DNA of 64,000 bases, from the IMG/VR virus record IMGVR_UViG_3300038393_000864, positions 1 to 64,000 of that record; one strand, 5' to 3'. A model generated the notes under the pieces. The model was not told where the DNA came from and searched no databases. It saw nothing but the letters and a program-made list of their open reading frames with translations. This document shows, in pieces, positions 1 to 60,124 of this stretch. Positions within the stretch are counted from its first letter, which is position 1; each line of letters begins with the position of its first letter. Origin of the DNA: a virus. The position numbers and the translations under genes are program-made.

Positions 1-159
1 TGGCCCTCGGGAACTTTCCTCATATGGCAGAGGTTATCGAACAGCAATCCCTAGTTAGTCTAGTCAGATTTGTTGGTGCATAGCGGAGCCAAACACGCTA
101 AGCAAGTTCCAACAACATACTAGCACGGTTAAATAGAGACATCAAGGAGAAAATAAAAG

Positions 160-447
160 ATGAGTAACTTATACGGTGTTAGCGTTGTTTTGCCTGTGAA
201 ATCTAAGAACAAATTTTCAACTGCTGCAACTACTAAATTTTATCTTGTAGATGAGTCTGGTTCTGAGGTTCCTATTGAGCTGAAGGGTGTGACATCTTTC
301 AACATCCCTGAAACCGGAGCAAATGATATTCTTAGTGTAAGTATTAATCTGCCTCTGTTTGAGATTAAATATGATGTAGCTACAACGCCGGAAGAAATCG
401 CCCGTAAATTAGCAGAGTTCCGTAAAGATTCTGGTTGCAGTGCTTAG
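160..447 (+). CDS. hypothetical protein (95 aa)
   Basis: ATG ORF with upstream AAGGAGAAAATAAAAG. No recognisable motif. First ORF upstream of the terminase region. Confidence 0.55.
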   Translation: MSNLYGVSVVLPVKSKNKFSTAATTKFYLVDESGSEVPIELKGVTSFNIPETGANDILSVSINLPLFEIKYDVATTPEEIARKLAEFRKDSGCSA

Positions 448-632
448 TCGGACGGTCAAGAAGCCAACGTGGGCTGACCTATAAATACACGTACTGAACA
501 TTCCCAAGGGACTATGCTCCGCAGGGAATTATACCGGGGCTATCCTCGGTCTACAGGTTGAGGGTGGCTCTAAGGTCACTAAAGCTCGCAGGCATGGTTG
601 AGTGGCGCTGCGACACCGAATATTGGGAGGCT

Positions 633-660
633 GCACGGCAGGGATGCTGTGTGGCTTTTT
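633..660 (+). terminator. hairpin plus T-run (putative rho-independent terminator)
   Basis: GCACGGCA-GGGA-TGCTGTGT forms an 8-bp stem (two G.U pairs) with a GNRA loop, followed by GGCTTTTTGTTGTTTG. Confidence 0.45.
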
Positions 661-687
661 GTTGTTTGTGTTTGGAAGTGTTGAATG

Positions 688-716
688 TTGACAAGATTCT
701 TATCATGCGCTATAAT
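688..716 (+). promoter_or_regulatory. sigma70-type promoter P1 (TTGACA-17-TATAAT) with AAGATTCTTA spacer element
   Basis: TTGACA at 688-693, 17-nt spacer, TATAAT at 711-716. The extended -35 region is shared with promoters at 3146, 19934 and 62213. Confidence 0.7.
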
Positions 717-738
717 ATAATTTTTGGCGGAGGTAAGA

Positions 739-1470
739 ATGGGTAAAAGACAGGATTTGACGGGTCAAAAGTTTGGGAAGCTTACGGCTGTAGAAGAGGC
801 TGGTAAGAATTCTAAAGGTACTTGGCAATGGTTGTGGGCATGCGATTGCGGAGGTACTAAGATTGCCGTCCCTGCTATTGTAAAAAATGGAAATACATCA
901 AGTTGCGGTTGTATTCGCAGGGAAGTTTTAGAGCAGCGAAACACAACTCACGGTATGAGTAAAAATTCAGCTTACTCAAACTGGAAAGATATGTTCAAGC
1001 GTTGCTACAACCCAAATAACAAACGGTACAAAGATTATAACGAGCGTGGGATCGGCGTTGACGACCACTTCCGTCATTTTCCAAATTTTCTTGAGGAGAT
1101 TGGAGAGAAGCCAAATGATGGACAAGTTTGGTCTGTTGGGCGAATTAATAACAATCTTGGCTACCAGCCGGGGAACATTCGATGGGAAACTCTTGCAGAG
1201 CAAGCTAGAAATCATTCCATGCAGAAAAACAACACGAGTGGTATCGTAGGAGTAAAACGCCAAGTTCAGACCAACAAGCATGGGACTTATATCAGTTGGG
1301 TCGCACACTATCGAGACGAGAACGGCAAACCAGTCACTAAAACGTTCAGCGTTAAGAAATACGGCGAAGAAGGCGCCAAGCAACTTGCAATTGAGGCCCG
1401 AGAAGCAGGCTTAAGAAAGTTGAAAGAGCACGGCATTGTGTACGCGGAAAGCCACGGCTCTGAAAAATAA
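739..1470 (+). CDS. free-standing homing-endonuclease-like protein, AP2 DNA-binding domain plus Cys cluster and degenerate HNH-like segment
   Basis: GGAGG lies 5 nt before the ATG at 739; the track start at 724 is TTG. AP2-like SGIVGVKRQ..YISWVAHYRDENGKPVTKTF..AIEAREAG. CDCG..SCGC cluster. VGRINNNLGYQPGNIRWETLAEQARNH resembles the HNH_3 tail but lacks the DH. Confidence 0.75.
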   Translation: MGKRQDLTGQKFGKLTAVEEAGKNSKGTWQWLWACDCGGTKIAVPAIVKNGNTSSCGCIRREVLEQRNTTHGMSKNSAYSNWKDMFKRCYNPNNKRYKDYNERGIGVDDHFRHFPNFLEEIGEKPNDGQVWSVGRINNNLGYQPGNIRWETLAEQARNHSMQKNNTSGIVGVKRQVQTNKHGTYISWVAHYRDENGKPVTKTFSVKKYGEEGAKQLAIEAREAGLRKLKEHGIVYAESHGSEK

Positions 1471-1475
1471 GGAGC

Positions 1476-3137
1476 ATGATGAATAAGAAACAAAAGATAG
1501 TGTTGGGGCCGGATAGCCCCACACATAAAAAGTTCTTAGATTGCACAAGTGATTATGTAATCTTCGGTGGTAAATGAAAGCTGCCTCCGTAAAATCTCTC
1601 TAATTCAGGGAAACTCTCTAGTAGACAATCCTGAGCGAAGCCTATTAAATAGGAACGTGCAACGACTAGCCGAAAGGCGTAGGGCTAAGCGGCCCGAAAC
1701 GGGAGACTCCGAAAGGATGAAGATATAGTCTGAACATTACAGCGATGTAGTGCTGCCTCTGGCGGGCTAAGTCTAGCGAGCTTAGTTGAACAAATGGGCG
1801 CAGGATGCGGAAAATCCCACCAAGCACTTTTGAAGGTGCTGAAATATAAAGACGATCCAAATTTCAAATGTGTTTTTATTCGCGAAACGTCAACACAGCT
1901 TTCACAAGCAGGCGGCTTGTATCAAGAGGCTGAAAAGATGTGGAAGCAATTTGGTGCAAAGTTCAAGACACACCCTCAAATGACTGCTACATTCCCTAGC
2001 GGAGCGCAAGTACAGTTCAAGGTTTGCGGAGCAGATCGGGATATTTCCAACTACGATGGTGGGCAGTTCTCCCTCGTCGTATTTGACGAGGCTCAGAATC
2101 ACACCGACGTTCAAATTAGGTATCTTGAGTCTCGTATTCGCTCTGAGGCAAAAGGACCGCATCAATTAGTGGCGACCTGCAATCCCCGCCGCGACAGTCA
2201 TCTAATGCCTTTTGTGTCGTGGTACTTGGACCAAGAAACAGGTATTCCTATTCCAGAGCGCTCTGGCGTTGAGAGGTATTATGCCTCTTATTGTGGGACT
2301 ATGGTATTCGGAGACACAAAAGAAGAACTGATGCAGAAGTATCCGGGGATATCGCCACAGAGCTATACGTTTATTAGCGCCACTATTCGGGACAACCCGA
2401 GGATGAAAGTACTCAATCCGGGGTATGTTGCTCGCCTTGAAAACCTGAAGCGTGTCGAACGAGAGCGTCTGCTGCTTGGCTCATGGTTCGCTAAAGAAGA
2501 ATCTTCTGGATATTTCAAACGAGAGTGGGTTGAAATTATTAAGAAATCCCCCGCCGAAGTTACAGCAAGATTCCGAGGAATGGACTTAGCAAGTACATTG
2601 GCATCCGAAAGTAACCCAAACCCGGACTGGACTGCATCAGTGCGAATCTCACGAGATAAATTCGGCTATTACATTGTAGAGCATGTTGAACGTTATCGCA
2701 AGCTGACTCATGGTGTTCTTGATGAAATTACGAAGAGATACTACGCTGACAAAGAGGAGCTTGGCAGGTCTGTTCCTGTAATTATCCCTAAAGACCCCGG
2801 CGCCAGTGGGGCACAGGCTAACGCATTCTTTATCAAAACGCTTGTAGAGCAAGGTGTTGATGCAAAATCTGAGATGGTTTCAGGTCATGCAGGTAAACTG
2901 GCAAGGATGCAACCGTTTCTATCTCTTGCTGAAGCTGGGTGGGTTAAGGTCGTAGAGGGCGATTGGAACGAATTATTCTTCAACGAGCTTGAAGATTATA
3001 TAGACGGAAACAGAAATCAGAAGGACGACATTTTCGATGCTACCGCGACCGCCGCAAAAGGGGTGATGAAAAATAACACCATCCCCTCCTTCTCCATTCC
3101 AACATTCTCAGCCCCATCCCCAATCCCCTCTACATAG
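1476..3137 (+). CDS. terL: terminase large subunit, split by a group I intron (exon 1 1476-1571, exon 2 1797-3137)
   Basis: Exon 1 encodes MMNKKQKIVLGPDSPTHKKFLDCTSDYVIFGG and hits TGA one codon later. Exon 2 starts GAGCGKSHQALL. The two are in the same frame, and the join restores GxxxxGKS. Walker B-like LVVFDEA lies downstream. The start could be 1479. Confidence 0.85.
1572..1796 (+). mobile_element. ORF-less group I self-splicing intron (td-like, IA2-type core)
   Basis: CTCTCTAGTAGACAATCC, ACGACTAGCC, and GAAGATATAGTCTGAAC (P7 GACTA/TAGTC). GNRA-capped hairpins. 3' end TTGAACAAATG with a terminal G; the 5' splice site follows U. Length 225 nt. Confidence 0.85.
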
Positions 3138-3145
3138 CACTAATG

Positions 3146-3174
3146 TTGACAAGAATCTTACCCCGTGGTACTAT
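3146..3174 (+). promoter_or_regulatory. sigma70-type promoter P2 (TTGACA-17-TACTAT) with AAGAATCTTA spacer element
   Basis: TTGACA at 3146-3151, 17-nt spacer beginning AGAATCTTA, TACTAT at 3169-3174. Sits between terL and the portal gene. Confidence 0.65.
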
Positions 3175-3201
3175 TCGTTTTAGTAAATAAAAGGAGCACT
3201 A

Positions 3202-4695
3202 ATGGCGAAAAAGAAGCCTGAAGACAAGTCGGCTCTTAACGCCGATCAAGGTGCAGTGATTCCCCGTATGAGTTTGGCAGAGGTAGGTTTTACGAACCTC
3301 CGAGTGTCTAACGGTCTTATTATAGAAGACTGTAACGCTGCCTTCCGCTTCCCTGCATTCTTTCGCACGGTTGACGAAATGCGCAAGTCTGCAATTATCG
3401 CGTCAGCCCTAAACGCATACAAGATGCTGCTTTCCCGTGTAAAGTGGCATGTAGAAGCCCCAGTAGGAGCCACTGAAGAACAAAAAGCCCGCGCCAAGTT
3501 TGTTGAGTCCATTAAGGACGACATGGAAACTGGCTGGGAAGATTTTATTGGTGATGTCATTGAGTATCTTCCTTACGGGTACAGTATTCAAGAAAAAGTA
3601 TATCGTCGCCGTCTGCGCAAGAATGGTTCTCGCTACAACGATGGCCTAGTGGGCTTGCGCAAGATTGCACCACGTCCTCAACAATCCATCGCCCGTTGGG
3701 AATTCTCGGAAGATGGTCGTGACCTTCTGGCAGTGCACCAGTCTGTGCAAGCCCTTGAGCACAGTTACTTGTATCTCAGTCAAGCTACTGAAGACGGATA
3801 CATTCGTATTCCCCGAGACAAGTTCATGTTGTTCTCTGCCGATGCTACTCGTGGCAACCCTCTCGGTCATTCGATCTTGAAGGGAGTGTACGCGAGTTGG
3901 AAGCAGATGTCAATGCTTAAGGACCAAGAAATTCTTGGTATTGCTAAGGAGGCCGCAAGCCTTCCCCTTATTCGCATTCCTGCTAAGTTTATGTCTCCGG
4001 ATGCGGACGACAGCGAGAAAGCTGTGTATGAAGCAGCCAAGCAGATTCTTGAGAATGTTGCGAACGGTACTAGTAAAGGCATTGTATTCCCCACGTTCAT
4101 TGACCAAGACTCTAAGAAAGATATGTTTGACATCTCTTTGCTTGAGAAGAAGGGTTTGAACGGTGCCAACATCGATACAGTGATTCGTCGCTATCAGGAT
4201 GAAATTCTTTCTACGCTTGCTGTTGACATTCTTAAAGCTGGCAGCAATCCGGGTTCGTTCAGTTTGTCCGATGGTGACACTAACGTTCTTGCCCTTGCAA
4301 TGAGCCACAGGTTGAATGAGATTGCTGCTGTGCTGAATAATGATCTTATTCCGTCACTCTATAGGATGAACGGATGGATTGATGAGGTGCTACCTAAGTT
4401 TGTGCCTTCGGATATTAGCTCGGTGTCCATCGAAGAATTTTCCAAGGGTATCCAAAGGGCTGCTAGTACAGGCGTTCTTGAACTGGATCGTGAGGTTCTT
4501 AATAAGGTGCGTGTTGTTCTTGGCATTAGCCCGAAGCCTGAAGACGAGCCTGTTGACCACGAAGCTTTGACTACAAACGTTTCTAAATCTGGTGCTGGCA
4601 TGGAGCCGGGTACGACAGGAGATGGGACAAGTCGCATAGGTGGCAATTCTAGCGGGCAGGACAGGTCTACGAACAATTCAGAAAATAAAGGCTAA
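3202..4695 (+). CDS. portal protein
   Basis: 497-aa ORF directly after terL and before the prohead protease. AAGGAG SD. Size and position are typical of portal proteins. Confidence 0.8.
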   Translation: MAKKKPEDKSALNADQGAVIPRMSLAEVGFTNLRVSNGLIIEDCNAAFRFPAFFRTVDEMRKSAIIASALNAYKMLLSRVKWHVEAPVGATEEQKARAKFVESIKDDMETGWEDFIGDVIEYLPYGYSIQEKVYRRRLRKNGSRYNDGLVGLRKIAPRPQQSIARWEFSEDGRDLLAVHQSVQALEHSYLYLSQATEDGYIRIPRDKFMLFSADATRGNPLGHSILKGVYASWKQMSMLKDQEILGIAKEAASLPLIRIPAKFMSPDADDSEKAVYEAAKQILENVANGTSKGIVFPTFIDQDSKKDMFDISLLEKKGLNGANIDTVIRRYQDEILSTLAVDILKAGSNPGSFSLSDGDTNVLALAMSHRLNEIAAVLNNDLIPSLYRMNGWIDEVLPKFVPSDISSVSIEEFSKGIQRAASTGVLELDREVLNKVRVVLGISPKPEDEPVDHEALTTNVSKSGAGMEPGTTGDGTSRIGGNSSGQDRSTNNSENKG

Positions 4696-4703
4696 GAGGT
4701 TTT

Positions 4704-5540
4704 ATGGCGTTTGTGTATTGGATTAGGGCACCACACCACGTTGACATCTTCACAGAGGGTTATGTCGGTTTTACTAGTACTACTGTCGAAGACCGCATGA
4801 CTACTCATAAGTCGGACTCTGTGCGAGACAAGTGCAAGGACTACCCTATATATTGCGCCTTTCGCAAATATGGTGAATCGCTCGTCATTGAGACTGTTTT
4901 AGAGGGTGATAACGAGTACTGCCTTAATATTGAGTACAAGCTACGGCCTGAACCTAAGATCGGCTGGAATTTGCTATGTGGAGGTCAGCGTGGTTCCCTT
5001 GGGACAAAAGCCTCCATAGAGACTAGGCGAAAGCAGTCTGAATCTCGTAAAGGTGTTAAGAATCATTTCTATGGAAAAAGTCATTCCCAAGAATCAAAAG
5101 ATAAGATTTCTAAAGCAAAGGTGGGTAAGGTTTCTTGGTCTGAAGATCAGAGATTAGCGATGTCTGCAAAGCGTAAAGGAGTTAAGAAAAATCTTAGCGC
5201 GGAGACTCGTGCAAGAATGAGTGCAGCGTCCAGTGCACGGCGGCACACAGATGAATCGAAAAGAAAACAGTCTGAAGCTAAGATAGGGTTGTACTTGTGC
5301 TGGAATGGCCCAAAAGCTAACAAAGAGCTTTGGGCGTGTGCTGACAAAGCTTATGAATTTTTGCAGCAGCACCCTGATGCAGGAGAGCGTAAGCTGTCCG
5401 TTTTTGCTTGTGGTAAAGACTTTCAATGCAAAAAGCTTCTTGCTAAATTGCGGAGTGGTTGGAACCCCTCTGAAGACGAAAGCTGGCTTGCATTCAAAGC
5501 CAATTATGAAAAGGAAAGATATGGCACACAGCCTATTTAG
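4704..5540 (+). CDS. GIY-YIG homing endonuclease with NUMOD3-like repeats
   Basis: N-terminal VYWI..GYVGFTS..R..H core. Repeated basic K-S-H-S/E..K.K.S motifs (HFYGKSHSQESKDKISKAK etc). Wedged between portal and protease. Confidence 0.75.
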   Translation: MAFVYWIRAPHHVDIFTEGYVGFTSTTVEDRMTTHKSDSVRDKCKDYPIYCAFRKYGESLVIETVLEGDNEYCLNIEYKLRPEPKIGWNLLCGGQRGSLGTKASIETRRKQSESRKGVKNHFYGKSHSQESKDKISKAKVGKVSWSEDQRLAMSAKRKGVKKNLSAETRARMSAASSARRHTDESKRKQSEAKIGLYLCWNGPKANKELWACADKAYEFLQQHPDAGERKLSVFACGKDFQCKKLLAKLRSGWNPSEDESWLAFKANYEKERYGTQPI

Positions 5541-6363
5541 ATTTGCAGAGTCGTTGTACAATGTACCTCATTTGATTCAAGCAGAGGCGGCTACAGCGAT
5601 TCTTGACTATATTAACTACCGCAACTCGCCTGATTTTTCTTCTACGCTTGTTGTAAAAGACAAAGAACCTGCTGCTGCACAGAAGCTCGATAAAATCGGT
5701 GAAATTCAAGTCGATGGTGCACTGACGTACAAACCTGTAGTTGGCGCGTGCGGCGGAGTGACCGGAGTATCTTATCAAGGTATTCTGGATCAAGCGCAAA
5801 TGCTTATCGATGACGGCATTACCACTCTAATTACTGTTCACTCCAGTCCGGGGGGCCAAGCTTCACATTGCTTCTCGACTGCAAATGACCTTCGTGCAAT
5901 GTGTGACGAGGCAGGTGTTAAATGGTATGCATATATTGACACATTGTCAGCTTCTGCATCGCTTGCCCTGAATGTCGCTGCTGACGAGGTGATTATCCAT
6001 CCAGACGCCTCTACAGGCTCTGTCGGTTGTGTTGTGGCGTTGCTCGACAAGTCCAAAGCATTTGAAATGAATGGCATCAAGCCAATCTACATTTCAAGCA
6101 CTCCCGGTAAAACTCCATTCGCAGAGGATGGAAGTTTCTCTAAAGAGTTTTTGTCCGAAATGCAAGACGAAGTGACTCGACTTGGTAATCAATTTGCCAC
6201 CCATGTTAGTAACTACACCGGTGTCCCGGTTGATGACATTCTGGCGATGGATGCAAAAATGTTTCATGCAGAGGCTGCTCTGGAGGCAGGTTTGGTTAAT
6301 AAGATCATGGATCATAAACAGTTCTCGGCTTATGTTGCCGAACAACACAAAGGAAAACAGTAA
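5521..6363 (+). CDS. prohead protease, S49/ClpP-like
   Basis: ATG at 5521 follows AAGGAAAG. TVHSSPGGQASHCF..IDTLSASASLAL..STGSVG is an SppA/ClpP-type serine protease pattern. The track's N-terminal extension from 5305 overlaps the GIY-YIG gene. Confidence 0.8.
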   Translation: MAHSLFRFAESLYNVPHLIQAEAATAILDYINYRNSPDFSSTLVVKDKEPAAAQKLDKIGEIQVDGALTYKPVVGACGGVTGVSYQGILDQAQMLIDDGITTLITVHSSPGGQASHCFSTANDLRAMCDEAGVKWYAYIDTLSASASLALNVAADEVIIHPDASTGSVGCVVALLDKSKAFEMNGIKPIYISSTPGKTPFAEDGSFSKEFLSEMQDEVTRLGNQFATHVSNYTGVPVDDILAMDAKMFHAEAALEAGLVNKIMDHKQFSAYVAEQHKGKQ

Positions 6364-35475: not shown

Positions 35476-35724
35476 TTATTTTAGTGATTCCCACTGTTCG
35501 TCGGTAAGCTTGGTAAGACCTTTATACCCATCTGCTACGAATAAGTTTTCCCCCAAGAAAATCTGTGGCATGGAACGCAGGCCTAGAAACTGGATATAAG
35601 AGAATGCAAAAGCGTCTTCATCCACCTTCTTAACTTCAAACGGTACGCCTTTCTTTTCCAGCAGAGCGATTGCTTGCGCACATTGAGCACAACCCTTCAT
35701 AGAATATACAGTAAGTCTCTTCAT
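35476..35724 (-). CDS. nrdH: glutaredoxin-like protein (NrdH-type)
   Basis: MKRLTVYSMKGCAQCAQA CxxC motif. 82 aa, immediately downstream of nrdB. Confidence 0.8.
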   Translation of the reverse strand: MKRLTVYSMKGCAQCAQAIALLEKKGVPFEVKKVDEDAFAFSYIQFLGLRSMPQIFLGENLFVADGYKGLTKLTDEQWESLK

Positions 35725-36680
35725 CAATACTCCCATCCACCCGTAAGACTATCCTTGCTGTACGCAGTGATAGTACGTTCAAAAAAGTTACCAAATACAC
35801 CGTCACCAGTGATTTCCTCAACAAACGTGAGTGGATTCTTCTCCACGCCAAACTGAGGCTTGAATCCCATCTGCTGCATGCGGTAATCGCACACAAATCG
35901 ATTGTTAAGCTTCACCTCATCAGCCGTCATGTTAGGTGGTTGCCAGATGCCATAACACAGGTCAACAAAACGATCTTCCAGATCAACCACTGTACGAGCC
36001 GTGGTGTAGATAGTGCGCTTGAACTCTTCCGTGACAACAGATGGATTCTCTTCAACGAAGATGCGGAAAAGTTCGGACAACCCTTCTACGTGCATCGATT
36101 CGTCAATAATGCTCCACTGATTCACACTCACCATACCCGGCAGCAAGCCAAGCCTGTTGAAGTTGAGGAGCATTGTGAACGAGGCAAACAGATTCACACC
36201 CTCCATAAGAATCTGTTTTGCAAGGTACTCTGCGATACCTTTGTTAGATCGTATGTTCGCTTGCTCAATCATGAACGAGTGCTTATCTGCCATCTCAGAG
36301 TACGACAAGAATTCATTCATAAACTCGTTAGTGTCATACCCAAGAGTCTCGTTCAGCAGCTTATAGCCAAGCATGTGAGTCACTTCACGATTCGCAAAGG
36401 ACAACAACATCGTACGTGCATCAGCATTCTTAAACACGGGTAGCAGCTTTTCTACATAGCCTGCACAAACGTTCGTATCGGCTTGAGTGAACAGGCGGAG
36501 AATCATTTTGATGAACTCTTTCTGCTCTGGCTTAATCTTGCCACCCTTCCATTGCTCGACATCTTGAGACATATCTGCCTCACTCTTCACCCAGTGGGCA
36601 CGTTCGTGTTTGTCCAACACTTGTTGCAGCTTCAGGTATTTGGGTACAAAAATCTCTGTTGCTTCTGTGATCTTACTCAT
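35724..36680 (-). CDS. nrdB: ribonucleotide reductase class Ia beta subunit
   Basis: Di-iron ligand motifs: FANREVTHMLGY and IIDESMHVEG. Confidence 0.9.
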   Translation of the reverse strand: MSKITEATEIFVPKYLKLQQVLDKHERAHWVKSEADMSQDVEQWKGGKIKPEQKEFIKMILRLFTQADTNVCAGYVEKLLPVFKNADARTMLLSFANREVTHMLGYKLLNETLGYDTNEFMNEFLSYSEMADKHSFMIEQANIRSNKGIAEYLAKQILMEGVNLFASFTMLLNFNRLGLLPGMVSVNQWSIIDESMHVEGLSELFRIFVEENPSVVTEEFKRTIYTTARTVVDLEDRFVDLCYGIWQPPNMTADEVKLNNRFVCDYRMQQMGFKPQFGVEKNPLTFVEEITGDGVFGNFFERTITAYSKDSLTGGWEY

Positions 36681-37258
36681 GTTCCATGCCTTTCACTGTA
36701 GTCTGCACCTTGTTCATTTAGCTCCTTTATCATTTTTAATCTATATTCTACCGCCATTTTAAATGCTGGCATTAGTCCATACTCTCTTATAGAAAAACAT
36801 TTCTGCGCTTGCTTCATGTCTAATGTCCTCCAACTGGCACACCAGTAATAAACCCCCTTACCGTTGGAGATGCAGCTAACACCACTTACTCCCGTAGAAT
36901 TGTTAATCTGCTTTTTCTTATTTCTACTGTTAGTCTTGAGGGTCGCTAATCTAAGATTTTCAATTTTGTTGTTCGTGCTGTCGCCGTCAATGTGGTCAAT
37001 GTACATTCCATCTAAGCTGCCTTTCAGGATTTTCCAAATTATGCGGTGTACTGCGTAGTCTTTCCAATTGAACATCACATGCCAATATCTTTTTCCTCCG
37101 ACACTACCAGCCACATCACCCGCTTGGCGTCGGGTGTGCTTCAATCCCCTGCCGTTCTTAACGTCCACCTTCCACCTCAAGCAGCTTGGGCTAGTTTCAT
37201 CGTAGTAGAAATAATCAGACCAGTTAATGTCATACTTGTCAGCGTTACTTTGTGCCAT
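36677..37258 (-). CDS. HNH homing endonuclease with AP2 domain
   Basis: IDHIDGDSTNNKIENLRLATLKTNSRN (HNH_3). STGVSGVSC..YYWCASW..FKMAVEYR (AP2). Inserted between nrdA and nrdB. Confidence 0.85.
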   Translation of the reverse strand: MAQSNADKYDINWSDYFYYDETSPSCLRWKVDVKNGRGLKHTRRQAGDVAGSVGGKRYWHVMFNWKDYAVHRIIWKILKGSLDGMYIDHIDGDSTNNKIENLRLATLKTNSRNKKKQINNSTGVSGVSCISNGKGVYYWCASWRTLDMKQAQKCFSIREYGLMPAFKMAVEYRLKMIKELNEQGADYSERHGT

Positions 37259-37329: not shown

Positions 37330-39165
37330 TCAGCCGCCGCAGGCTACACATTCCTCGGTTGTCCAGTCTACAAGTGCCTTTCGCTCAATTTTCTTGGCAT
37401 GGTCCGCGCTACCTTCTCGCTCCGTGCGCAGATAGTACATAGTCAGAACGTTCTTAGCACGCAAAAACTTTAGGTGCACGGAGTTGACATACTTACGGCT
37501 AGAACCAAAGGGGAAGAACGTATTCAGGGACTGCGCCTGCATACCTGCATATTGTCCGCGCTGGTCTGCCAACTCAACAACCCAGTGTTGGTCAAGTTCC
37601 ATAGCCACCTTGAACACATCTTTGTCATGATCCGACAAGAAATCAAGGTGATCGACTTTACCTTCATTCTTGTTGATGCTTTCCCAAACATCGTCAGTGT
37701 TCTTGCCAAGCGACTCCAGCAGTTTTTCCAGATGACGATTCTTCACCTTAAACGTACCTGCACGAGTGTCCTTCAAAAACACATTGCGGAAGTACGGCTC
37801 AATACTAGGCGATGTGTCAAGCAAGTCTGCACTATTAGCATTTGGGGCAATCGCCATCGTTCGGCTGTTGCGCAGACCGGTTCCAATCATATCATCAGGC
37901 TCACCTCGTTCTACTGCAAGGCGACGGCTCTCTTCCTGTGCACGTTTGCTAATCTCGCTGTACAACATGTTAGTGTGCATGACCGCACTGTTGAACCCGC
38001 CGCTCTCAAACGCAATACCTTTACTCTGAAGATACCCATGCCATCCAAGGGTGCCAAGCCCGATAGCACGCTCTTTCTCTGCACTGAACTTCGCCTTACG
38101 CATGCCGTCAGGGGCATTATCAATAAAGCTTTGCAGTACATTATCAAGGAAGCGAACCAAGTCCTGCACAATGTTGGTGTCTTTCCACTCTTCCCATTTT
38201 TCCAGATTGAGGCTGGATAGGCAGCACACGAATGTGCGTTCTTCGTCGGTCGGCAGGACAATCTCACTACACAGATTAGAGCCACGAATCTTAAGACCTT
38301 TAGCCTTCTGCGTTTCTGGCATCCGGCGATTGGCCTCGTCAATCTTCAGCAGATAGGGTTCGCCGGTGAACGCACGAGTCTCCATAATCAGTTCCCACAC
38401 TTCACGAGCACGCAGTGTATCCCGAACTTCACCTGTGTGCGGGCATACTAAACTGTACATTGTGTCATTGAAAACGGCATCAATGAAATCATCAGTAAGA
38501 TTCACAGCATTGTGGAACTGCTGCCTATTATCGCTACGCCGCTTAGTGTCCCCACCCGGCTTACGGAAGTTAATATGCTCAAGAATATCAGGGTGATTAA
38601 CATCCATATAAACTGCAATAGCACCCTTGCGAGTCTTACCTTGGCGATAGTATCCAATGGTACTATCCAACACTTTCATGTAAGGGATCGGACCGGGAGA
38701 TTTCTCGCTCACAGCACGGATGCTGATGTGCCCACCTGTACCACCCCCAGCCGTTGACAAATCTGCCAATTCTACCATTGCCTCTTTCTGGCCTTTCAAT
38801 GTATCCGGCACATCGAAAGCAAAACAGGAAATAGGTTGACCAACACTTTTCTCTTCTGGAATGAACGTGCTCTTGTACCAGTAGTGTGCACCCTTCTTTT
38901 CAGGATCATTCACCCAACTACCTTTACGAGCATTCGACAGGACGGGGCTGGCATACATAAACCAACCGTTGTACACATAGTCGTAGATGCGCTGTGCAAG
39001 CTCCAGATCACCGTAACAGAAAGCGATTGCAGGACGAGCCAAGGCTTCCGAAATAGATTCATCATTGCGCTTGTAAAACCCATCCAGCAACGTACGCGAG
39101 AACTCAGTGATGTACACTGGGTCTTCCTCGTTAATCAAAATACCTTTGTACGCTTTTTTACTCAT
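37330..39165 (-). CDS. nrdA: ribonucleotide reductase class I alpha subunit (no ATP-cone evident)
   Basis: NLCSEIVLPTDEERTFVCCLSSLNL active-site region and a C-terminal CVACGG tail. ATG at 39165. Confidence 0.9.
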   Translation of the reverse strand: MSKKAYKGILINEEDPVYITEFSRTLLDGFYKRNDESISEALARPAIAFCYGDLELAQRIYDYVYNGWFMYASPVLSNARKGSWVNDPEKKGAHYWYKSTFIPEEKSVGQPISCFAFDVPDTLKGQKEAMVELADLSTAGGGTGGHISIRAVSEKSPGPIPYMKVLDSTIGYYRQGKTRKGAIAVYMDVNHPDILEHINFRKPGGDTKRRSDNRQQFHNAVNLTDDFIDAVFNDTMYSLVCPHTGEVRDTLRAREVWELIMETRAFTGEPYLLKIDEANRRMPETQKAKGLKIRGSNLCSEIVLPTDEERTFVCCLSSLNLEKWEEWKDTNIVQDLVRFLDNVLQSFIDNAPDGMRKAKFSAEKERAIGLGTLGWHGYLQSKGIAFESGGFNSAVMHTNMLYSEISKRAQEESRRLAVERGEPDDMIGTGLRNSRTMAIAPNANSADLLDTSPSIEPYFRNVFLKDTRAGTFKVKNRHLEKLLESLGKNTDDVWESINKNEGKVDHLDFLSDHDKDVFKVAMELDQHWVVELADQRGQYAGMQAQSLNTFFPFGSSRKYVNSVHLKFLRAKNVLTMYYLRTEREGSADHAKKIERKALVDWTTEECVACGG

Positions 39166-39745
39166 CAACAATCCCTTCTACATTCTTACGTTTATGTTTC
39201 TTCCGCTTCTTTTCAGCAGGCTTCGGATTACGATAGTCTTCCAAACTTTTGTATGATCCATCAGGATTACGCTGCTCGCCCCGAATGTGGAACAGAATCT
39301 CTTCTAGTTGGTTAATCTGTTCGACAATCTTAAGTTCTTCTGCCTTATACTCTTCAGCTTCCTTGGTAGGAATGTTATCGTCAAGAGCATGCGAGCCACC
39401 ATATTGAGGGCACGTATGGCCCATTGCATACAATTCTTCGTAGAGGCTCTTATCCTGTGCCTGAGCAGCCAGCATCACATCCTCTAAAGTCGAATACGGA
39501 CCTTTGATGTGCTTGCGTGCGAAATTATATTCACCTGCGAACAAAAATCCAACTTTTACTTCACCTTTCAACGTTCGGTGTTGTGCAGCATAAACATGCA
39601 CCGCTTTGTTTGTGTCGAATCCAAGTTCAGCAAGAACTCCATATACTTTGTCTGCGTTATCAAGATGAACAAGATCAAACTGATTCATACCTTGCAACGG
39701 CTCTGCCAACAAGAGGTCGTACGCACTAATTACTTTTGACATCAT
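39158..39745 (-). CDS. hypothetical protein (195 aa) with basic C-terminal tail
   Basis: GGAGGTG SD. C-terminal KKRKKHKRK. Confidence 0.6.
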   Translation of the reverse strand: MMSKVISAYDLLLAEPLQGMNQFDLVHLDNADKVYGVLAELGFDTNKAVHVYAAQHRTLKGEVKVGFLFAGEYNFARKHIKGPYSTLEDVMLAAQAQDKSLYEELYAMGHTCPQYGGSHALDDNIPTKEAEEYKAEELKIVEQINQLEEILFHIRGEQRNPDGSYKSLEDYRNPKPAEKKRKKHKRKNVEGIVDE

Positions 39746-59581: not shown

Positions 59582-60124
59582 CTAAATTCCGTGAGTTTCT
59601 GTATAACTGCACCCTACTGCGTTCATATCGTCTAGCATCTGTTTGCGGCATTCTACCGCTGCTTGAAATGCACCGTCGTAGCCCATCTTTTCAATTGAGA
59701 AGTGCTTTTGAATATTTTCACCATTCACGCAACATCGTGCAGTCCAGTACAGATTATGTCCGCTATCTGTTATTCCCACACCAGTTACGCCACTCGTGTT
59801 GTCCGACCTAATTGTGTGGTTTTGTGAATTTTCTTTCCTAGTTACTACTCTTAGATTTGATCCTATATTGCATAGCCTGTCACGGTTTATGTGGTCCACT
59901 TCTAGTCCGTAAGGTATTTCAGAATTGTTTAGAATTTCCCAGATAATTCTGTGCACATAATATAGCTTATTGCAGATACGGACCTCATAGTAACCACCAG
60001 AACCAATACTTCCAGCAACATCTCCTTTAGAACAAAGCAACCTATTTCGTAGATGCACGTCTTTTGCCCGCCTCAGGCAGGACGGGCTTGTTTCGTCGTA
60101 ATATACGTGCTCTGACCAATCCAT
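59582..60124 (-). CDS. HNH homing endonuclease with AP2 domain
   Basis: YYDETSPSCLRR, VDHINRDRLCNIGSNLRVVTRKENSQN (HNH_3), and TSGVTGVG..LYWTARC..FQAAVECR (AP2). AGGAGGGG SD. Confidence 0.85.
   Translation of the reverse strand: MDWSEHVYYDETSPSCLRRAKDVHLRNRLLCSKGDVAGSIGSGGYYEVRICNKLYYVHRIIWEILNNSEIPYGLEVDHINRDRLCNIGSNLRVVTRKENSQNHTIRSDNTSGVTGVGITDSGHNLYWTARCCVNGENIQKHFSIEKMGYDGAFQAAVECRKQMLDDMNAVGCSYTETHGI

Follow-up and report, generated by a model that had tools for sequence, protein, structure and literature searches.

Does a free-standing, endonuclease-like gene that lies directly upstream of terL move between phages together with the group I intron that interrupts terL? The question is raised by a viral DNA of 64,000 nucleotides (nt; positions 1 to 64,000 of IMG/VR record IMGVR_UViG_3300038393_000864, hereafter the window), in which open reading frame (ORF) 739-1470 ends just before the terL start codon and an intron that holds no gene of its own splits the Walker-A (P-loop) codons (Table 1). 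An earlier note on this DNA had proposed the two as a candidate collaborative-homing pair. We put at about even the chance that ORF 739-1470 is an intact, selfish, free-standing gene of the homing-endonuclease type, and that its product causes the cassette, exon 1 of terL, and the intron to move jointly into naive alleles of that gene, with a target at or near the P-loop codons.

Comparison with close relatives, whose TerL proteins are ~84% identical to that of the window, showed both the cassette and the intron to be clean indels. Empty-site alleles have only ~13 nt (CTATTAAGGGCAC) in place of the cassette; in gene-less relatives, 13-14 nt separate the terL ATG from a conserved GTTGTTT (window 661-667) that follows a terminator-like hairpin. 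The hairpin is conserved in relatives with and without the gene, and the cassette sits between this terminator and the terL ribosome-binding site, its promoter lying directly 3' of the hairpin. ORF 739-1470 is best read as a free-standing cassette gene with its own promoter, and not as a core gene, because close relatives are cleanly without it. The earlier description of a free-standing gene, with a promoter of its own, that stops 5 nt (1471-1475) before terL was accurate in each of these respects, and the promoter is also kept in the alignment of three other gene-carrying lineages (loci L011, L014, and L022). Among 50,697 phage genomes this phage has no close sequenced relative: Megablast of window positions 1-5600 returned only short matches to the intron core. 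A tRNA in the spacer upstream of terL was considered and rejected.

Table 1. Positions of the features of the terL locus in the window (aa, amino acids)
Feature	Position	Strand	Remarks
Terminator-like hairpin, then T-tract	624-661	+	17-pair stem; left flank of cassette
Inserted cassette, ~0.8 kb (promoter, ribosome-binding site, endonuclease-like ORF)	668-1475	+	Alignment and upstream comparison with relatives
Sigma-70-type promoter, TTGACA-17 nt-TATAAT	688-716	+	12/12 consensus match
Ribosome-binding site GGAGG of ORF 739-1470	728-732	+	Sequence reading
Endonuclease-like ORF, free-standing	739-1470	+	ATG 739, TAA 1468-1470, 243 aa; intact
Zinc (Zn)-ribbon module	748-927 (aa 4-63)	+	C35, C37, C56, C58
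Predicted beta-beta-alpha (HNH-like) element	1129-1209 (aa 131-157)	+	E131-135, E147-151, H152-157 in AlphaFold2 model
AP2 DNA-binding domain	1240-1407 (aa 168-223)	+	PF00847; matches to solved AP2 domains
terL exon 1	1476-1571	+	32 codons, ends ...FGG
ORF-less group I intron, 225 nt	1572-1796	+	RF00028; splits Walker-A (P-loop) codons; 96 nt past terL start
terL exon 2	1797-3137	+	Starts GAGCGKS...

The limits of the intron were set by intron-less relatives, which read FGG/GAGCGKS uninterrupted (the slash marks the junction); U1571 precedes the 5' splice site, and the terminal G of the intron is G1796. The predicted spliced TerL is colinear in one piece with PAK_P3/KPP10-like TerL over residues 7-475 (~40% identity). 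The intron scores 78.2 bits against Rfam RF00028 (gathering score, 50), and the sole plus-strand ORF of at least 40 aa that overlaps it, 1567-1728, starts in exon 1 and is read-through, none lying wholly inside; that it encodes no endonuclease of its own, as the earlier note had said, is thus borne out. Compensatory changes were found at 35 of its 51 predicted base pairs, which identifies it, as far as covariation can, as a constrained ribozyme. Introns were matched in 16 lineages, in all 16 after GGTGGT in the Walker-A codons, and those of relatives score 60-99 bits with RF00028. Rfam missed the introns of L029 and L051, in which an nhmmer profile of this intron family found full-length copies (E = 3e-30 and 1e-47, respectively); the profile had no match in intron-less loci. 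Junctions lacking both intron and gene read ...ATCTTCGGGGGC/GGTGCAGGGTGT... in the L001/L004 type and ...ATTTTTGGCGGA/GGCGCTGGTTGT... in the L002 type. The P-loop codons are G/C-rich (GGC GGA GGC GC...), which would fit the reported preference of AP2 domains for GC-rich DNA (Barth et al. 2023; PMC10448857).

Loci sampled through TerL, and therefore unbiased for gene and intron, were L001-L010 and L034-L041, from scans of viral and metagenome contigs (8 loci only in the metagenome scan). Neither element is present in L001, L004, L002/3/10, L005, L006, L036, and L039; both are present in the window and L037. L034 has the intron only, and L007 the gene only, as a homolog of 43% identity beside an intron-less terL. 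The intron is accompanied in L008/L009, two contigs of a single lineage, by a different free-standing gene directly upstream, whose 376-aa product has treble-clef repeats and a MUG113/T5orf172 match. The L035 contig, whose terL is intron-less, starts 14 nt upstream of terL. In L034, the spacer upstream of terL still holds ~18 nt from the start of the cassette, joined directly to the final ~20 nt of the ORF (encoding THGSEK), as a deletion remnant of the cassette; the gene is therefore dispensable, and subject to a cycle of gain and decay. L007 and L008 have the same sequence upstream of their different genes (HNH-like and T5orf172/GIY-YIG-type, respectively), and thus one endonuclease gene appears to have been replaced by another at a single site. 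Together with the probable inteins described below, these states of a single site form a natural series in which models of collaborative homing and endonuclease turnover are directly testable.

The same states bear on whether ORF 739-1470 could encode a packaging accessory HNH protein that, like HK97 gp74, works with the terminase. Its position immediately upstream of terL is in keeping with this, as such proteins share that location (Barth et al. 2023; PMC10448857), but the gene is missing from at least seven close relatives with an intact P-loop, FGG/GAGCGKS (terL is full length in six, and the L004 contig ends 6 nt before the stop codon). Overall, it is missing from L001-L006, L010, L036, and L039, deleted in L034, and replaced by the T5orf172 gene in L008; in addition, no canonical HNH motif was found with Pfam. 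A gp74-type packaging factor was disfavored because the gene is dispensable, and we consider it very improbable.

Some further observations concern the target site and the gene family. Exon 1 of L035 (L035:1-130) is 97% identical to that of the window, and its intron-less junction reads GGTGGT/GGCGCAGG; this site either has lost its intron precisely or is naive, and polymorphism in the population may explain the break in the assembly. L038 (278-979) carries an in-frame insertion of ~234 aa at the same Walker-A codons; the insertion ends ...VVTHN/T, matches Hint_2 weakly, and is probably an intein. L040 and L041 (upstream of positions 3001 and 2299, respectively) look similar; the P-loop site would therefore attract introns and inteins alike. 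L040 also holds two halves of a related group I intron (4239-4325 and 4967-5048) with ~640 nt between them; these may be one intron into which an ORF has been inserted. The alignment of terL with the query (residues 5-401) ends at 4194, and the two halves come shortly after it, at the terL 3' end or just downstream. Paralogs of the ORF 739-1470 protein (35-48% identity) were seen at another locus, ~4 kb upstream of terL, in L011 (1-289, minus strand) and L005 (1299-2003, minus strand), the former directly adjoining a PhoH-like gene; these phages therefore carry the family at more than one site.

Gene and intron are tightly linked in the loci sampled through the protein. A search found 371 homologs at E ≤ 1e-10, and 12 clusters (P0002, 8, 9, 11, 13, 19, 32, 44, 57, 52, 84, and 115) were traced to contigs, making 13 with the window's own P0001. 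The 12 share ~40-79% identity with the window protein, and basal branches of the family tree are represented among them. Each of the genes immediately precedes a short terL exon 1 or overlaps its start, and a gap of ~220-250 nt comes after the exon; Rfam recognized a group I intron in all but two (L029 and L051, whose introns were found by profile). All 13 sampled clusters, as well as L037, which was found through TerL, are intron-linked at the same P-loop codons. Exon 1 also differs consistently, reading CTSDYV in gene-carrying alleles and CKSNYI or CQSDYI in gene-less ones. On the TerL tree, lineages with both elements and with neither are interleaved: L014 is nested among L002, L004, and L006; the sister of L011 is the intron-less L035, and that of L037 is L036. 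A further cluster, made up of L007, L008, and L034, holds three different states. The proposed pairing, and its synteny among related phages, therefore held for linkage and for the interleaving of states, but not without exception, as the intron occurs alone in L034 and beside another gene in L008/L009, and the gene occurs alone in L007. What the comparative data establish is a linked unit that is repeatedly gained and lost, which is of course distinct from a biochemical collaboration.

Of 36 lineage pairs, 25 show higher conservation in the gene than in TerL, and 31 show higher conservation in the gene than in portal (window and L032, for example, are 60% identical in the gene, 38% in TerL, and 44% in portal); therefore, either horizontal exchange or unusually strong constraint has to be supposed. 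Synonymous sites are saturated between all sampled lineages, and no ratio of nonsynonymous to synonymous substitution rates is computable. Such saturation might be expected if gene and intron were a relic pair, acquired once long ago, now immobile, and inherited vertically with an occasional joint loss by recombination, and no recent transfer was detected among the nearest pairs of loci that differ in state (80-88% identical). However, an immobile selfish gene should gather frameshifts, and all sampled copies are intact; the greater conservation of the gene relative to TerL and portal and the interleaving of states on the TerL tree also argue against a relic, which we think improbable.

Among the domains attributed to the ORF 739-1470 protein, the AP2 domain was confirmed (45.5 bits with Pfam PF00847; gathering cut-off, 33.3). 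The CDCG..SCGC cluster corresponds to the four cysteines of the Zn-ribbon, which are invariant among 81 homologs; some longer homologs carry as many as 11 copies of the unit, which is missing from 189-aa variants of the family and is probably an accessory DNA-binding unit. An AlphaFold2 model built with the 81 homologs (predicted local distance difference test, pLDDT, 90.5) has, in order, a beta-rich Zn-ribbon (aa 15-58), a helical segment, the beta-beta-alpha element, and the AP2 fold. The HNH-like stretch, VGRINNNLGYQPGNIRW (aa 133-149), is without the catalytic His, as had been noticed: G134-R135 stands in place of the canonical D-H, with R135 at the His position. The element also has an invariant Y142 in its loop and N146, and a conserved N158 lies just past it, near the helix end.

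Profile searches for a nuclease fold recovered the AP2 domain, but Pfam HNH models, HNH_3 included, did not match ORF 739-1470 even at E ≤ 1, and an NCBIfam search of the protein gave no match. Two other genes of the window, which the earlier note had called clear HNH-AP2 genes (36677-37258 and 59582-60124), are indeed canonical HNH_3 plus AP2, at 50.6 and 54.8 bits with HNH_3, but both are on the minus strand. Their products are 36-37% identical to the C-terminal 96 aa of the ORF 739-1470 protein. With hhalign, the latter matched the window's own HNH_3-AP2 protein at 99.4% probability from aa 143 to the C-terminus, a stretch that takes in the latter half of the HNH motif together with the linker and AP2 domain. 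Its aa 1-177 match phrog_374 of PHROGs ("HNH endonuclease", E = 4.6e-52), a label that is an annotation and not a test. The core of the family is thus represented by this PHROG label only, having no solved structure, no Pfam model, and no NCBIfam match.

The G-R of this protein at the canonical D-H position of the multiple alignment is paralleled by D/E-R in phage D3 orf30.5 and in phages of Klebsiella, Ralstonia, Vibrio, and Staphylococcus, and by D-K in ICP1 gp59-type proteins. A full-library search with aa 1-165 yielded 125,287 cluster representatives at E ≤ 1e-3. Core residues were tallied on the best 150 of these, of which 134 align over the core and 131 have residues at the positions counted. 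The His position is Arg in 131/131, position 142 is Tyr or Phe in 131/131, and position 146 is Asn in 129 of 131. The missing His is a constrained family trait because Arg is found in all of these distant representatives and G134 and R135 are both invariant in the 81 close homologs; the suggestion of a decaying endonuclease was accordingly dropped. The ORF, which is intact in every sampled lineage, has 24 invariant columns.

If ORF 739-1470 does drive co-mobility, then upon co-infection its product would bind an intron-less, gene-less terL allele through the AP2 and Zn-ribbon modules and would break or nick it at or close to the G-rich sequence that encodes the P-loop. The lesion would then be repaired from the donor genome, with gene, exon 1, and intron copied together, and the intron would both keep terL functional and interrupt the site in the donor. 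The nuclease activity, the position of the cut, and the immunity conferred by the intron are steps that we infer; strict collaborative homing is plausible.

Several observations weigh against this mechanism. The L007 homolog is found beside an intron-less terL whose P-loop DNA resembles that of gene-less alleles, and thus the intron cannot always be needed for self-protection. In the TerL-sampled subset alone, the association of gene and intron is weak (one-sided Fisher p = 0.067, with lineages that are non-independent). Two indels ~100 nt apart will co-segregate by linkage alone, and co-occurrence is therefore no proof of functional collaboration. The nearest state-differing pairs, at 80-88% nucleotide identity, allowed no fresh conversion tract to be mapped. 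For the protein, Foldseek of the AlphaFold2 model against the PDB returned AP2 domains only, and hidden Markov model (HMM) searches of PDB sequences with the protein and with the family profile likewise returned AP2 and no HNH. The general-base His of His-Me fingers is Arg in all sequences examined, the metal-ligand Asp/Glu that precedes it is Gly in the ORF 739-1470 subfamily, and nuclease activity of any member of this family was not found in the literature searched.

The L007 state, and the consistent differences in exon 1, would also be accounted for if an active endonuclease cut elsewhere, e.g., in the intergenic region or the first terL codons, and the intron, ~100 nt away, were simply co-converted, self-protection being provided by sequence polymorphism. 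In phage T4, MobE reportedly cuts at a distance from where the intron is inserted. Such trans-homing or hitch-hiking has a documented precedent in MobE/I-TevIII, the intron being carried along with flanking DNA mobilized by MobE (PMC2790892). However, the L007 gene shares only 43% identity and branches outside the main clade of the protein family tree, so its specificity may differ, and every gene lineage in the protein-sampled set of 13 clusters keeps the intron. We judge hitch-hiking of the intron to be unlikely, though well within consideration.

The missing His bears most directly on whether the protein cuts at all. It might instead be a non-catalytic DNA-binding protein, a pseudo-nuclease or a domesticated regulator, whose pairing with the intron reflects physical linkage and ordinary phage recombination. 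The His is nearly invariant in His-Me fingers, and the exceptions either are inactive, as are Smad MH1 and Enpp, or use a loop tyrosine, as does PacI (PMC5714182). In the present family the His is missing throughout, and the subfamily has lost the Asp also; in addition, the Zn-ribbon unit occurs in tandem, DNA-binding-like repeats, and AP2 domains have been recruited to act as transcription factors (Barth et al. 2023; PMC10448857). On the other hand, the patchy distribution, own promoter, conserved-gene neighbors, replacement by a bona fide endonuclease gene, and deletion in L034 are each a usual trait of selfish endonuclease genes. R135, Y142, N146, and N158 (and H71 in most sequences) are invariant or nearly so, which suggests a conserved active-site-like constellation, and the PacI loop Tyr shows that such a residue can stand in for His (PMC5714182). 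A non-catalytic protein seems to us about as likely as hitch-hiking, a minority view.

Returning to a protein that cuts, a PacI-like substitution of the His by Y142 is a reasonable reading of the analogy, as the loop Tyr is not present in canonical HNH_3 proteins. PacI has a His-less beta-beta-alpha-metal core in which a loop Tyr takes over (PMC5714182), and the family has Y142 there, but no sequence or fold match between them was detectable; the likeness would be one of chemistry, not homology. An extended version of the argument would make the ~125,000 cluster representatives an active His-less family of His-Me fingers, in which the invariant Arg and the loop Tyr replace the His in PacI-like fashion. 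One clade would then be in a long-lived, near-obligate partnership with the terL P-loop intron as its immunity device, and the gene-intron unit would anchor the exchange of terL modules between divergent phages. We offer this version tentatively, as rather doubtful. Whichever holds, the intron-less terL P-loop region provides a concrete predicted DNA target for a member of a very large His-less, HNH-like family: if the protein cuts, it would define a new active-site variant, and if it does not, the "HNH endonuclease" annotation of a large number of genes is mistaken.

The layout itself is already known from Vibrio phage ICP1; what is new here is the endonuclease family and the richer set of natural states. 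The ICP1 terL locus consists of a T5orf172 gene, a short terL exon 1, an ORF-less intron, and exon 2; its splicing was validated by RNA sequencing and reverse transcription PCR, the layout was called collaborative homing, and endonuclease turnover was discussed (Barth et al. 2023; PMC10448857). ICP1 thus shares with the window a free-standing endonuclease gene, an exon 1 of ~33 aa, and an ORF-less intron of ~250 nt at the same Walker-A position, its record reading exon 1 as ...YGG and exon 2 as AGGGKS (YGG/AGGGKS). It differs in that the gene is of the T5orf172/GIY-YIG type (28% identity to the L008 gene) and not HNH-like-AP2, and in that its intron is not detected by the HMM of the window intron family; it also belongs to a different phage lineage.

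Collaborative homing as a concept originated with T3/T7-like phages and cyanophage S-PM2 (F-CphI), in which cleavage at the intron insertion site was shown experimentally, whereas for the window locus such cleavage is postulated; the host genes there are DNA polymerase and psbA, and the endonucleases are canonical HNH and Endo VII-like (PMC3984707, PMC6083498). T4 mobE/I-TevIII resembles the window in having a free-standing HNH-family gene beside an intron that is unable to move alone, but that intron carries a defunct endonuclease ORF (PMC2790892) and the window intron has none. At the protein level, a comparison can be made with the atypical HNH-AP2 ("IPA-HNH") genes, ICP1 gp59 and gp209 (Barth et al. 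2023; PMC10448857). They share an HNH-like N-terminal part that is undetected by Pfam HNH_3, a C-terminal AP2 domain, and a location next to essential genes, but gp59 has D-K at the His position and no Zn-ribbon. The profile match with gp59 (83% probability) covers aa 34-120 only, and BLASTP was nearly empty. Canonical HNH_3-AP2 phage genes, e.g., those of Xanthomonas phages (PMC2248197), likewise have a C-terminal AP2 domain and lie next to essential genes but, unlike the window protein, keep D-H.

A second free-standing endonuclease-type gene lies in the window directly after portal (4704-5540, plus strand), with a GIY-YIG-like N-terminus and three NUMOD3 repeats, and the terL-portal block is therefore bracketed by endonuclease genes. 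Homologs of the second gene (30-38% identity) are at the same position in L002, L006, L010, L014, L024, L029, and L039, and none is present in L001, L005, and L011. Over window positions 3100-4700, comparison with L001 showed portal to be 97% identical in aa sequence, with nucleotide identity reaching 99-100% near 4100-4600, whereas TerL is only 84% identical; a mosaic boundary is therefore placed near the end of terL or the start of portal. At 3146-3174 on the plus strand, shortly before portal, is a second near-consensus promoter (TTGACA-17-TACTAT, with a TG upstream).

Further HNH-like genes similar to ICP1 gp59, in which a D-K motif is combined with an AP2-like tail, were seen at L007:7465-8082 and L008:246-968 (both minus strand); one of this gp59-like pair lies between terL and portal in L007. 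The canonical HNH_3-AP2 gene at 36677-37258 of the window is wedged between ORFs that, from a reading of their translations, resemble the small (35724-36680) and large (37330-39171) subunits of ribonucleotide reductase.

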